A DNA stretch of 22,956 nt from a virus (taxonomy: Duplodnaviria > Heunggongvirae > Uroviricota > Caudoviricetes). A program made the translations under genes and the position numbers. Shown here in pieces: positions 19,531-22,038 of the stretch. Within the stretch, counting starts at the first letter, position 1. The number at the start of each line of letters is the position of its first letter. The notes under the pieces were generated by a model that was given only the letters and a program-made list of their open reading frames with translations, did not search any database and was not told where the DNA came from. The stretch lies in the IMG/VR virus record IMGVR_UViG_3300045988_018328. The stretch is one strand, 5' to 3'.

Positions 19531-19574
19531 TAAGGTGTGAATCATGAAATACGAATTCGATGGATTTTGATGTC

Positions 19575-19586
19575 GTGACATGTCAC
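19575..19586. repeat. Perfect 12-bp palindrome GTGACATGTCAC (15-mer TCGTGACATGTCACA identical to the copy at 22024-22038)
   Basis: Found by eye; lies about 75 bp downstream of the terminase large subunit stop codon. Confidence 0.5.
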
Positions 19587-19660
19587 AAACAGCCAGCCGA
19601 TGAGCTGGATTTGTTTTATCCTCACCAGAGGATATCAGCAGCATTATCCCCTCCAGAGGA

Positions 19661-21136
19661 TTAAGCATAGGGATCGTAATCTGTAATGGCCTTGCCTTGC
19701 TGGTTCTGCTGACCGGGAATTCGCAGACGCTTCGACACCGGGAAAGCAAACGTCAGCAGTAGCGCATCGCCTTTACCCGGCGAACGCCCAAGCCGCTCCT
19801 TGATATCTTCCTTCGGTTCGATAACGATTTTACCGTCCACGCGAACTTTGTACTCTGCCGCCGACAGGTCGTCCGCTGTTTCCTGGTCATCCAGCATGCC
19901 GCCCAGCCTCAGCCATGTCTTGCATGCATTGAACATCTCCCCACGCTTGTTAAGCATCTGCGGGTCAGTGGACGCACCGCCGAACGGAACAAGTTGCCAT
20001 GTACGTCCCCAGCCATCACCGATTGACTTCAAACCGGTTCCGTAACCGAAGTCGATGAACACCGCGTCAGCCTGGTACTGGTCTTCAAAGTCAGCGATAC
20101 GCTTCGCCATAATCAGATCGTCGGTGGTCTTGTTGCCAGTCCACAACACCTTACTGTGCAGCCCCTGCCGCAGGTATATCACAGCGTCATCAACGCCGGA
20201 GTATGCCGGGTCAACGCCGATTATCACCGGAGCATGTGCCACCTGCGCAGCGGTTACCACCCGTTTCATTGCCTCGTCAGTAAGACCGGTAGGGATAAAC
20301 TGCAATTCAGATGCATCAGGGAATATGCCACGCACACGGATTTTAACGAAGTCGCTGTCTTCCCCGTAGTCATCAACCCATTTCTGCAACTGATGTTTGT
20401 TAGTGCCTTCCACCGTCCGGCTGTCAATCTGCGCAGTTTTCCAGCGATGTTTATATTTGCGGAAACATTCGCGGAAACGTCCGGTGTTACGTGTAGGGTT
20501 TCCGAACGCCACCCAGATAATCTCAGTGTCTTCGTCCGTAAGCGCACCCTCAGCAACTTCCCACACCAGATCCGCAATGTTCGACGCTTCATCGAATACC
20601 ACGATGATGCGTTTGCGCTCGTTGTGTAGTCCGGCGAATGCCTCAGTGTTGTGCTCAGACCAGGGGATTGCGTCAGCTCGCCACCGCTTGTCGTGCCCAG
20701 GGTCATTGCTGTACATCGCGGTAGCGGTACAGGTAAACCAGTCTTTCGTGATAGCAAGGTTCGACCACTTGATAATTTCCGGCCAGGTCTTCGTTCGTAG
20801 CTGGTTGTCGGTGTTGGCGGTCACCACGACCTTACAATCCTCGCAAGTGGACATGCCCCAGTTGATCAACATTGAGATGAATGCTGATTTACCAATACCG
20901 TGGCCCGAAGCACGTGCCAGCATAAGCGGCTGATAGCGCGTCTCTGGATTCTGCAGGTGATCACGTATCTCTCGGAACGCATCAGCCTGCCACTGACGTG
21001 GGCCGGTGGCATGTGCCAGTTCAGTCCCCTCTTCCCCCCAAGGGAACGCATAGAGGACATAGCCAAGCGGATCGTGAGTGAACCCTGCAATATCCTCGAT
21101 CAACTGCTCTTCAGGAGATAACGCTGTATCTGTCAC
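19661..21136 (-). CDS. Terminase large subunit (491 aa)
   Basis: N-terminal ATPase domain (Walker A-like ASGHGIGKS, ...IIVVFDEAS...) and C-terminal nuclease domain. ATGA overlap with the small-subunit gene. Confidence 0.9.
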   Translation of the reverse strand: MTDTALSPEEQLIEDIAGFTHDPLGYVLYAFPWGEEGTELAHATGPRQWQADAFREIRDHLQNPETRYQPLMLARASGHGIGKSAFISMLINWGMSTCEDCKVVVTANTDNQLRTKTWPEIIKWSNLAITKDWFTCTATAMYSNDPGHDKRWRADAIPWSEHNTEAFAGLHNERKRIIVVFDEASNIADLVWEVAEGALTDEDTEIIWVAFGNPTRNTGRFRECFRKYKHRWKTAQIDSRTVEGTNKHQLQKWVDDYGEDSDFVKIRVRGIFPDASELQFIPTGLTDEAMKRVVTAAQVAHAPVIIGVDPAYSGVDDAVIYLRQGLHSKVLWTGNKTTDDLIMAKRIADFEDQYQADAVFIDFGYGTGLKSIGDGWGRTWQLVPFGGASTDPQMLNKRGEMFNACKTWLRLGGMLDDQETADDLSAAEYKVRVDGKIVIEPKEDIKERLGRSPGKGDALLLTFAFPVSKRLRIPGQQNQQGKAITDYDPYA

Positions 21137-21738
21137 TGATTACCATCCTGACGTTCTTTGAGTCGCTTCCTAGCTGCTGCTATGCGATCAGCAATTGTCA
21201 CATTCACATTAACATCCAGACGTTCTTTGAACGCGTTGACATCAACATGCTTACCAATCAGCTCAAGGTTCTTCACCTTGTCAGGCCATTTAATTTTTTT
21301 GAGGATTGTCTCTATCGAATCCTCGTTCATGTTCATGATGGTCGATGACAGATCAAAGCCACTAAGCGTAGTGCGCCAGATTTTCGGCCACTCGCGGATT
21401 GGTTTAAGGCTCCCATCGTCGTTGAGGATATCGATCACGTCCATCTGGTCGATCTCCACCAAGCGCATGAGAACGTAATCAGCACTGACGCGCATTCGTT
21501 TGTTGCGCTCCTCCATCAACTCGGCAATCCGTTTTTGAATGCGTTCATCGCGCATCATGGCACTGGCTTTAACTGCCGCTGTATTTGGGGAGAATCCTGC
21601 GTTAATCGCTGCCTGAGTCTGGTTTTCAGGCGTTTTGATGTATGACTGGCAATAAGCCTCCTGCATTGCTGTGAGCGGCTTAAATTGCGTTGATTTGCGT
21701 TTATAGGTTTTAGGTTCAGCAGGCATCATAACCACCAT
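21133..21738 (-). CDS. Terminase small subunit (start uncertain: 21738, 21729 or 21726)
   Basis: Classic TerS N-terminal region LTAMQEAYCQSYIKTPENQTQAAINAGFSPNTAAVKASAMMRDERIQKRIAEL. The track start (TTG at 21807) runs through an upstream terminator hairpin and gives an implausible low-complexity N-terminus. Confidence 0.8.
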   Translation of the reverse strand: MVVMMPAEPKTYKRKSTQFKPLTAMQEAYCQSYIKTPENQTQAAINAGFSPNTAAVKASAMMRDERIQKRIAELMEERNKRMRVSADYVLMRLVEIDQMDVIDILNDDGSLKPIREWPKIWRTTLSGFDLSSTIMNMNEDSIETILKKIKWPDKVKNLELIGKHVDVNAFKERLDVNVNVTIADRIAAARKRLKERQDGNQ

Positions 21739-21768
21739 GGTAATAGTTACCGTCGTGGTAATAGTACC

Positions 21769-21800
21769 ATAAAAAATAAAGCCGCCATAGTTGGCGGCAG
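21769..21800 (-). terminator. Intrinsic terminator immediately upstream of the terminase small subunit gene
   Basis: Minus-strand reading GCCGCCA-acta-TGGCGGC followed by TTTATTTTTTAT. Confidence 0.65.
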
Positions 21801-21803
21801 TAT

Positions 21804-22016
21804 TCAAAGTCCATCAAATTCATCGTAAAAACTCTCGTCAAGATACCCTTCCCATTTACCGCGAATGAAAATTACATCCTCGCCGCAAGGGTGCTGACTG
21901 TCGATAACTATATCCCTCCTGGCGCAACCATACTTATGCATGAGAAATTTAACCTCTTTCGGAAAATTTGCTGAGTTATCTCTCATATCTTCAAGGTCGT
22001 AGCGTATTTTTGGCAT
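21804..22016 (-). CDS. Small hypothetical phage protein (about 70 aa)
   Basis: Track ORF starts at GTG (22037); the ATG at 22016 has GAAGGTG upstream. Confidence 0.45.
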   Translation of the reverse strand: MPKIRYDLEDMRDNSANFPKEVKFLMHKYGCARRDIVIDSQHPCGEDVIFIRGKWEGYLDESFYDEFDGL

Positions 22017-22023
22017 AACACCT

Positions 22024-22038
22024 TCGTGACATGTCACA
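22024..22038. repeat. Second copy of the palindrome TCGTGACATGTCACA, at the junction of two small genes upstream of the terminase genes
   Basis: Identical 15-mer to 19573-19587. Confidence 0.5.

Follow-up and report, generated by a model that had tools for sequence, protein, structure and literature searches.

The window (the whole stretch of 22,956 nt analyzed here) belongs to a phiV10/epsilon15-like prophage (Uetakevirus), in which the late genes lie on the minus strand. Read in that direction, the region of interest begins with a gene for a 112-aa protein (22034–22372, minus strand), a homologue of phiV10 p55, epsilon15 gp49 and N15 gp46 that falls within phrog_536 ('transcriptional regulator'). 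Its TGA stop codon is overlapped by a palindrome, PAL1 (GTGACATGTCAC, 22026–22037), and 9 nt further on is the ATG of a 70-aa ORF (21804–22016, minus strand; phrog_1541, function unknown), which is inserted between PAL1 and an intrinsic terminator, T1 (21781–21798, minus strand; GCCGCCAACTATGGCGGC followed by a T run). After T1 come two TTACC-N5-GGTAA palindromes (21729–21761), directly upstream of terS (21133–21726, minus strand; Terminase_2; a longer RefSeq version starts from a TTG at 21807), and then terL (19661–21136, minus strand). Beyond terL is a bidirectional terminator hairpin, T2 (19593–19608; CCAGCCGATGAGCTGG), the counterpart of which is annotated as a terminator in phiV10, and 6 nt from it lies the second copy of the palindrome, PAL2 (19575–19586). 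A tRNA-Arg(TCT) gene (19268–19344, plus strand; Rfam tRNA, 73 bits) is transcribed towards terL and is followed by a plus-strand terminator (19508–19523), so that transcription converges at PAL2. The structural operon ends at terminator T3 (3003–3020, minus strand), and in relatives a third copy, PAL3, directly precedes T3, but in the window the sequence at that place is CAGTGATCAAAC. The first-pass annotation had noticed neither the overlap of PAL1 with the stop codon and its position ahead of the 70-aa ORF, nor the terminator beside PAL2, nor the third copy in relatives.

The TTACC-N5-GGTAA sites match the prophage-repressor operators annotated in epsilon15 (protein_bind features). There are six in the window, against 0.33 expected, with such sites after T1 and ahead of the gp3-like gene. 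Of the pair preceding terS, one is exact (21747–21761) and the other has one mismatch (21729–21743), which implies that terS-terL has a promoter of its own under repressor control. PAL1 and PAL2 are a different palindrome from these repressor-type sites, and so were rejected as prophage-repressor operators. A promoter at PAL1 was likewise discarded, as a consensus scan of the window gave no promoter-like site in the PAL1–T1 interval. Some relatives in Klebsiella and Citrobacter do carry TTGACT 5–6 nt after the palindrome, without this being a general feature.

The first-pass annotation had reported that the 15-mer TCGTGACATGTCACA occurs twice, bracketing the terminase genes, and that each copy contains a perfect 12-bp palindrome. 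Both observations were reproduced: the 15-mer is found at exactly 19573–19587 and 22024–22038, with no third copy in the prophage, and the core GTGACATGTCAC is a perfect palindrome in the two copies. The gene distances given were also roughly right, with PAL2 ending 73 nt past the terL stop and PAL1 preceding the terS start codon (ATG, 21726) by about 298 nt. When up to two mismatches were allowed, the sole addition was the opposite-strand reading of the first copy (0.07 expected from shuffled sequences). An identical prophage is present in E. coli SCZE5, where a 48 kb stretch, covering the prophage except for the last ~1 kb or less, carries the same two copies only, and no box with one mismatch in the 5-bp arms. 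Perfect 12-bp palindromes are no more numerous in the window than chance predicts (5 versus 5.6), but GTGACATGTCAC alone is repeated, and no repeated palindrome appeared in 200 shuffles. The caution that a repeated 15-mer is weak evidence by itself was well placed, as the window has three independent repeated 15-mer loci.

As many as three syntenic positions carry an unchanged GTGACATGTCAC in distant relatives. One is the stop codon of the 112-aa gene, ahead of terS, and the others adjoin the terminators that follow terL and the structural operon. The identical 12-mer is found at these sites in epsilon15, Tyrion and phiV10-type phages, where the flanks are about 70–80% identical or unrelated. 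The PAL1 position is occupied in epsilon15, Tyrion, phiv142-3, Kp4865-1 and Omnitron, and in 76 of 78 informative IMG/VR relatives; two further IMG/VR loci stop short at the stop codon. Information content at this site, anchored on 46 distinct sequences, is 2.0 bits per position in the arms, compared with 1.25 in the upstream coding sequence and 0.35–0.66 downstream. The 70-aa ORF is a presence/absence polymorphism with its breakpoint 2 nt from PAL1; it occurs in 28 of 78 informative close relatives, the remainder having an 8-codon remnant, and in epsilon15 and Tyrion T1 follows 22 nt after PAL1. PAL2 is syntenic in phiV10, epsilon15, Tyrion and Kp4865-1, and at least eight different sequences directly adjoin it among relatives. 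Genomes carry two to four copies, but isolated phages, TL-2011b and phiV10 among them, lack individual copies or have them in mutated form. Differences in the presence of small genes are concentrated immediately beside each copy.

The same arms and spacing, GTGAC-N2-GTCAC (hereafter, the box), are found at or just after the stop codon of phrog_536 homologues in N15-like, P2-like, lambdoid, Pantoea and Xenorhabdus prophages, the backbones of which are unrelated. In N15-like phages the box lies at or within ~10 nt of the stop of the homologue in all 46 loci (GTGACTGGTCAC in 45 and GTGACGGGTCAC in one), with an identical second copy within repA, and in Yersinia P2-like phages it is so placed in 40 of 41 loci (GTGACGCGTCAC in nearly all), and at four Yersinia P2-like loci it lies 10 nt past a different stop. 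It is at or within ~10 nt of the stop in Pantoea AH07 and 10 nt after it in the lambdoid Chlobot/L037, and gene and box together, at 91% identity, occur inside a lambdoid phage beside xis-int. In Xenorhabdus the box starts 5 nt after the stop, so its preservation does not depend on overlapping the stop codon. Across species-representative genomes of many genera, 39 of 61 loci have the box between −15 and +45 nt of the stop. Further boxes within 10 kb on either side of the gene number 43, about 40-fold above the 1.09 expected, and Vibrio phage K233 has three, all of them intergenic, including one 19 nt before the terS ATG. The co-occurrence of site and gene across independent lineages is beyond chance.

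Arm spacing was counted in 11 genomes carrying the gene. A 2-bp centre was found 27 times, while every other spacing from 0 to 8 occurred at most once, against 0.39 expected; 27 of 29 inverted-arm occurrences have a 2-bp centre, and a 3-bp centre was seen once. Uetakeviruses have AT at the centre and N15-like phages TG/CA at nearly every copy; centres are mixed in Vibrio K233 and some Yersinia-type loci, but the arms never vary. One centre per lineage combined with invariant arms fits direct read-out of the sequence rather than an RNA stem. The arms and the 2-bp spacing hold even though the protein lineages are only ~30% identical. Boxes are also enriched beside terminators, with a terminator-like hairpin no more than 45 nt away from 27 of 82 boxes, versus 69 of 1220 random positions.

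The 112-aa protein belongs to a family labeled 'hypothetical protein' in RefSeq, for which 916 homologues turned up in the databases. Modeling suggests a ribbon-helix-helix (RHH)-like core with a Cys-rich C-terminus, and the model resembles RHH DNA binders. Pfam searches with eight diverse family members gave no match, to RHH families or others; an NCBIfam match to 'LexA regulated protein' (E = 0.08) was far under the cut-off; sequence and profile searches of the PDB and Foldseek returned nothing significant; and an HNH domain was not detected.

Because the box is tied to one gene across unrelated phages, it is probably a regulator's binding site and not a signal for packaging or terminase exchange. 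A regulator binding site was one of three roles proposed in the first-pass annotation, and it is the one now favored, given the syntenic invariance and the tie to a single family of putative DNA-binding proteins. More specifically, and with moderate confidence, we propose that the box is the cognate site of the 112-aa protein family, set at the ends of transcription units. GTGACATGTCAC would be one instance of GTGAC-N2-GTCAC, a double-stranded DNA site for the product of 22034–22372, and an RHH-type dimer would recognize both invariant GTGAC arms, separated by a constant 2-bp centre. Uetakevirus boxes would then mark the 3′ ends of successive units, with PAL1 at the end of the early-right operon, PAL2 at that of terS-terL and PAL3 at that of the structural operon, each adjoining an intrinsic terminator and the next unit presumably starting at its own repressor-controlled promoter. 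The bound protein would most likely set how much transcription passes the unit boundary, possibly by acting as a roadblock, by reinforcing the terminator or by local antitermination, and it might bridge sites as well. Both the role of the 112-aa protein as the binder and the direction of any effect on transcription are inferred from these associations.

An unlikely alternative is that a host protein binds the box, most obviously MatP, the site of which (matS, GTGACRNYGTCAC) has the same 5-bp arms, and that the phage thereby tethers or organizes its DNA or titrates MatP. However, matS is a 13-bp site with a 3-bp (RNY) centre (PMC6907758, PMC3603311), one base longer than the 12-bp phage box, and the near-exclusive 2-bp spacing described above does not fit it. 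Among 500 prophages of Escherichia and Salmonella, none has a true matS site (PMC3603311). Nor would a host factor explain how the box came to accompany the 3′ end of a single phage gene in five or more unrelated backbones. One might instead regard the 112-aa protein and its boxes as a phage-borne counterpart of MatP/matS, bridging or insulating at operon boundaries, for example by enclosing terS-terL between PAL1 and PAL2, and the 1-bp offset would then make the site orthogonal to, or competing with, that of MatP. This is a long shot. Alignment of the family to E. coli MatP gave an hhalign probability of 0.2% (BLASTP E = 1.3), the only resemblance is that of the generic RHH fold, and MatP has a four-helix bundle and coiled coil where the phage protein has its Cys-rich C-terminus. 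Moreover, matS sites are spread over an 800 kb domain, whereas the boxes stand at gene ends and terminators of a 40 kb phage. All boxes in the window and in relatives have a 2-bp centre, unlike the 13-bp matS.

It is distinctly unlikely that the box is a recombination boundary, either a short linker promoting the exchange of small genes or a site-specific or homing target, spreading with the gene as a mobile cassette. Such a role would account for sequences diverging 0–2 nt from the box at all three sites, for the variable 70-aa ORF at PAL1, for the alleles adjoining PAL2 (the p03 gene among them), for the different last genes preceding PAL3, and for the close match of gene and box next to xis-int in a lambdoid phage. 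However, breakpoints at gene boundaries are usual in mosaic phages, also where there is no box (e.g., site 2 of TL-2011b), and 12 bp of identity is very short for homologous exchange. The box has no linked recombinase or nuclease, the protein looking instead like a small RHH binder, and the strict spacing and invariant arms across divergent protein lineages are what a binding site predicts.

That the palindrome acts in RNA, as a small 3′-end hairpin for processing, stability or translational coupling to the next gene, is very unlikely. The box is transcribed at unit ends, and it often lies 9–19 nt before the next start codon and beside terminator hairpins. With a 2-nt centre, however, it could form at most a stem of 4–5 bp with a tetraloop, and this weak hairpin was all that folding yielded. 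The box is not consistently part of the minimum-energy fold, the z-scores stem from the neighboring terminators, and the arms are constant in sequence in all lineages, with no compensatory changes. Either orientation is found, with boxes before as well as after terminators, and Rfam gave no match to the box, the tRNA being its sole match in the window.

Least credible of all, and close to dismissed, is a packaging (pac) or terminase recognition site flanking the terminase genes, as the first-pass annotation had suggested: PAL1 does lie upstream of terS in Uetakeviruses, as does one Vibrio K233 box, but these phages are circularly permuted headful packagers (PMC5754475), their two to four boxes include one at the distal end of the structural operon and so do not make the single terminase-specific first-cut site of a headful pac, individual copies are dispensable, being absent from isolated phages, and in N15-like, lambdoid and P2-like backbones the box has kept to the 112-aa gene, a long way from terminase genes that are unrelated to the ones here. 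The Tyrion record opens in the middle of PAL1, but a cos site or physical end was rejected since Tyrion DNA is circularly permuted and terminally redundant (PMC5754475), making the ends of the record arbitrary. The further suggestion that homing or recombination had delivered the terminase cassette did not hold up. TerL is closest to epsilon15 (94% identity; Tyrion, 80%) and TerS to Tyrion (87%; epsilon15, 77%), and these discordant nearest relatives indicate that the block was not exchanged as one unit.

If the box is a binding site of the 112-aa protein, as we prefer, several known systems invite comparison. RHH repressors such as P22 Arc and Mnt, CopG and the TacA and MazE antitoxins also bind palindromic operators, but the box is not at the gene's own promoter, lying instead at its stop and at other operon ends, and the phage protein has an additional Cys-rich domain and matches no RHH Pfam family. 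The arrangement in Uetakeviruses and Vibrio K233, where the gene is the last before the late genes and is followed by the box and an intrinsic terminator ahead of terS or the holin gene, recalls the lambdoid Q/QBE/tR′ module. In contrast to that module (Q protein, element in the late promoter, then terminator), only the terminator is present here: the 112-aa protein is without similarity to any Q family, PAL1 and T1 have no promoter between them in the window, terS apparently has its own repressor-controlled promoter, and boxes are found at operon ends as well. In addition, N15, Chlobot, AH07 and Omnitron have a canonical Q plus this gene. Mycobacteriophage stoperators, believed to block through-transcription, are short sites for a protein that recur in the tiny gaps between genes, close to stop and start codons. 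The boxes are similarly short, repeated, putative binding sites near stop and start codons. Stoperators, however, are asymmetric, occur about 20–30 times in a genome, point in the direction of transcription and have the immunity repressor as their binder, whereas the boxes are symmetric, few in each genome, and separate from the repressor-type TTACC-N5-GGTAA set. Among other candidates, a CRP/FNR site (TGTGA-N6-TCACA) was excluded by inspection, as the gap here is N4, and a P2 Ogr-type dyad (TGT-N12-ACA) by its spacing. The SlmA site, GTGAGTACTCAC, is also unlikely: the outer GTGA...TCAC is common to both, but the four bases inside are different.

To our knowledge, late-gene control in epsilon15/phiV10-type phages has not been worked out. 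The exact 12-mer GTGACATGTCAC appears in no paper of the literature searched, and searches for Uetakevirus regulation turned up no mention of a GTGAC-N2-GTCAC box. Should the proposed role be correct, it would provide a function and a DNA target for a widespread family of hypothetical proteins and define a new regulatory box in phages that serve as reporter and typing phages for O157 and Salmonella. With boxes lying next to terminators and over the stop codon of the regulator gene itself, control would seem to be exerted where transcription units end and not at promoters. The one-base offset from matS may bear on how RHH proteins measure half-site spacing and on whether phages avoid or exploit MatP, and a true phage counterpart of MatP/matS could affect host Ter organization or division during infection. 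For annotation, the box makes module boundaries easy to spot in these prophages, and gene and box together are present in 637 of 5426 complete E. coli genomes (~12%).

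The window, whose late genes lie on the minus strand, is a phiV10/epsilon15-like (Uetakevirus) prophage. It contains the exact 15-mer TCGTGACATGTCACA at 22024-22038 (PAL1) and 19573-19587 (PAL2), with no further match in the window at up to two mismatches (0.07 expected). The first-pass annotation had described an identical pair with a 12-bp palindromic core, found nowhere else, and the exact-match search of the window agrees. The 12-bp core, GTGACATGTCAC, is perfectly palindromic. Palindromes of this length occur at about chance frequency in the window (5 seen vs 5.6 expected), and this is the only one present twice; repeated palindromes were found in 0/200 shuffles. 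Beside guaA in E. coli SCZE5 lies a prophage identical to the window, and 48 kb of sequence there (nearly the entire prophage plus host flank) has only the two copies. Another exact 15-mer repeat, ATAATCCATCATTTC (18332-18346 and 22713-22727), codes for Met-Met-Asp-Tyr on the minus strand both times, within the portal gene and at the start of a NinX-like gene, and is probably a coincidence.

In the late direction, the NinX-like gene comes first, followed by a 112-aa gene (22034-22372, minus strand) with its TGA stop inside PAL1, a 70-aa ORF of unknown function (21804-22016, minus strand; phrog_1541), terminator T1 (21781-21798), two TTACC-N5-GGTAA palindromes, and terS and terL (19661-21726, minus strand). 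The bidirectional terminator T2 (19593-19608) follows terL, and PAL2 lies 6 nt past it. Beyond PAL2 are plus-strand terminators (19388-19423 and 19508-19523) and a tRNA-Arg(TCT) gene (19268-19344, plus strand; ARAGORN, Rfam 73 bits), which lies on the opposite strand to the late genes and, like the plus-strand terminator, points back to terL. Another TTACC-N5-GGTAA site and the gp3-like and portal genes come next. The homologous tRNA of GenBank MN187550 is annotated on the late-gene strand, the reverse of the orientation seen here, and an opposite-strand gene found between the tRNA and PAL2 in relatives (phiV10 p03) is missing from the window prophage.

TTACC-N5-GGTAA occurs six times in the window (750-764, 1130-1144, 2175-2189, 18931-18945, 21729-21743 and 21747-21761; 0.33 expected) and matches the annotated prophage-repressor operators of epsilon15. 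Some of the sites lie just upstream of terS or the gp3-like gene, and others fall in the region of the antirepressor and tail fibre. Because of these matches and their excess, terS-terL and the structural genes, like the early-right operon before them, look like successive repressor-controlled units. The placement of the sites suggests that the 'late' genes are divided into several units under direct repressor control.

Salmonella phage epsilon15, Enterobacter phage Tyrion and the E. coli phages phiV10 or phiv142-3 have the identical 12-mer in three syntenic positions: at the stop codon of the 112-aa gene homologue (site 1), adjoining the terminator after terL (site 2), and directly before the terminator closing the structural operon (site 3, PAL3). 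The chance expectation of its general form, GTGAC-N2-GTCAC (the box), is 0.04 in 40 kb. The palindromes mark the 3' ends of the apparent early-right, terS-terL and structural units. PAL1 of phiV10 has one mismatch, at site 2 TL-2011b lacks PAL2 and carries another terminator, and the window prophage has no PAL3 and retains the terminator T3 (3003-3020). The last gene of its structural operon, a 273-aa ORF (3027-3848, minus strand; hypothetical and called 10 codons longer in SCZE5), is unlike its counterparts in phiV10, phiv142-3, epsilon15 and Tyrion, which are short, and its presence coincides with the lack of PAL3.

In an IMG/VR set of 80 close relatives, taken with flanks of up to 10 kb on each side, the box is restricted to sites 1 and 2, except for two at atypical downstream offsets (L188, L189). 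The sequence beside each box varies: in 46 distinct, anchored site-1 sequences the arms (GTGAC/GTCAC) are invariant and the sequence immediately downstream is almost unconstrained, eight or more different sequences, p03 of phiV10 among them, directly border PAL2, and differing last genes precede PAL3. About a third of the informative close relatives (28/78) carry the 70-aa ORF at PAL1. In relatives without the full ORF, its first and last codons are fused into an 8-codon remnant (MHDEFDGF*), and on this ground these relatives look like deletion derivatives.

The decisive result is the tie of the box to one gene family. The 112-aa protein has no Pfam family and is a member of phrog_536, labelled 'transcriptional regulator', homologues of which are found in quite different phages with the box at or just past their stop codons. 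It is at the stop in 46/46 loci of N15-like phage-plasmids (GTGACTGGTCAC, or GTGACGGGTCAC at one locus) and in 40/41 loci of Yersinia P2-like phages (GTGACGCGTCAC in nearly all; 10 nt past a different stop in four). In Pantoea AH07 and many Pantoea/Erwinia prophages it lies between the homologue and xis, in the lambdoid phage Chlobot 10 nt past the stop and immediately ahead of the ribosome-binding site of the next gene, and in Xenorhabdus prophages 5 nt past the stop. For species-representative genomes, a box is found between -15 and +45 nt relative to the stop at 39 of 61 loci, and 43 further boxes occur within 10 kb either side of the gene at those 61 loci (1.09 expected). N15-likes have a second GTGACTGGTCAC, identical to the box usual at the gp46 stop, about 620 nt inside repA at every locus reaching that far (4292 in N15, L257; homologous positions, 40 loci), either a regulatory site in the replication gene or a sequence kept by coding constraints, and occasionally a third box between convergent genes. 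Vibrio phage K233, with a homologue of only 31% identity, has three boxes, all intergenic, one of them 19 nt before the terS start. The stretch from its 112-aa homologue to the holin gene (L321, 33227-33495) has a box first, then a promoter-like site (33336-33364) and then, immediately ahead of the start codon of holin, a strong terminator (33469-33495); the arrangement resembles the late switch at lambda pR'-tR'.

Enrichment is confined to the 2-bp spacing (27 occurrences in 11 genomes, every other spacing at most one). The arms never vary across the lineages compared, and the centre dinucleotide is mostly common within a lineage (AT in Uetakeviruses, TG/CA at nearly all N15-like copies), with mixed centres in K233 and some Yersinia-type loci. 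Fixed arms, N2 spacing and a lineage-shared centre point to direct sequence recognition by a symmetric dimer and not to an RNA stem. The best-supported reading, which builds on the link to the phrog_536 genes and agrees with one of the roles offered in the first-pass annotation, a regulator-binding site, is that the box would be the cognate site of this protein family. A terminator-like hairpin lies within 45 nt of 33% of boxes vs 6% of random positions. Since boxes lie at unit ends and such hairpins are enriched nearby, we favour a model in which the bound protein would control transcription across unit boundaries, up or down. In the Uetakeviruses and K233, where gene, box and terminator precede the late genes in that order, a Q-like late-gene role is attractive. 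Against it, PAL1 in the window lacks a promoter, terS seems to be driven from an operator-controlled promoter of its own, and several carriers of the 112-aa gene also have a canonical Q.

By analogy, the MatP site matS (GTGACRNYGTCAC; PMC6907758; PMC3603311) offers a striking architectural parallel, its arms being equal to those of the box but its centre one base longer. A 3-bp centre was never seen in a spacing census of the box in Uetakevirus or N15-like genomes, the 112-aa protein has no sequence similarity to MatP, and 500 prophages are reported to lack true matS (PMC3603311); for these reasons the box is not regarded as a matS member. Circular permutation of the genome, the presence of multiple, dispensable copies, and box-bearing backbones whose packaging genes are unrelated make a packaging site, another early proposal, unlikely. 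That the terminase block arrived as a single cassette, also suggested at first, is contradicted by the discordant relationships of TerL (94% identity to epsilon15, 80% to Tyrion) and TerS (77% and 87%). Together with the portal protein (81% and 94%), this pattern implies one recombination junction between terS and terL and a further one between terL and portal, and the block (19661-21726) is internally mosaic. The case for an RNA role of the palindrome is weak: folding gives a feeble 4-5 bp hairpin at most, and Rfam matches only the tRNA.

Judged from sequence comparisons, we rate the box and the 112-aa protein as a probable regulator-operator pair of a known kind, whose site is unusually placed and, intriguingly, almost identical to matS. 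The exact 12-mer is in no paper of the literature searched, a set that did not include the epsilon15 genome paper, and is unannotated in the epsilon15, phiV10 and Tyrion records; the sole trace in these annotations is a peculiar 'terminator' feature, one base long, at the end of the phiV10 record.
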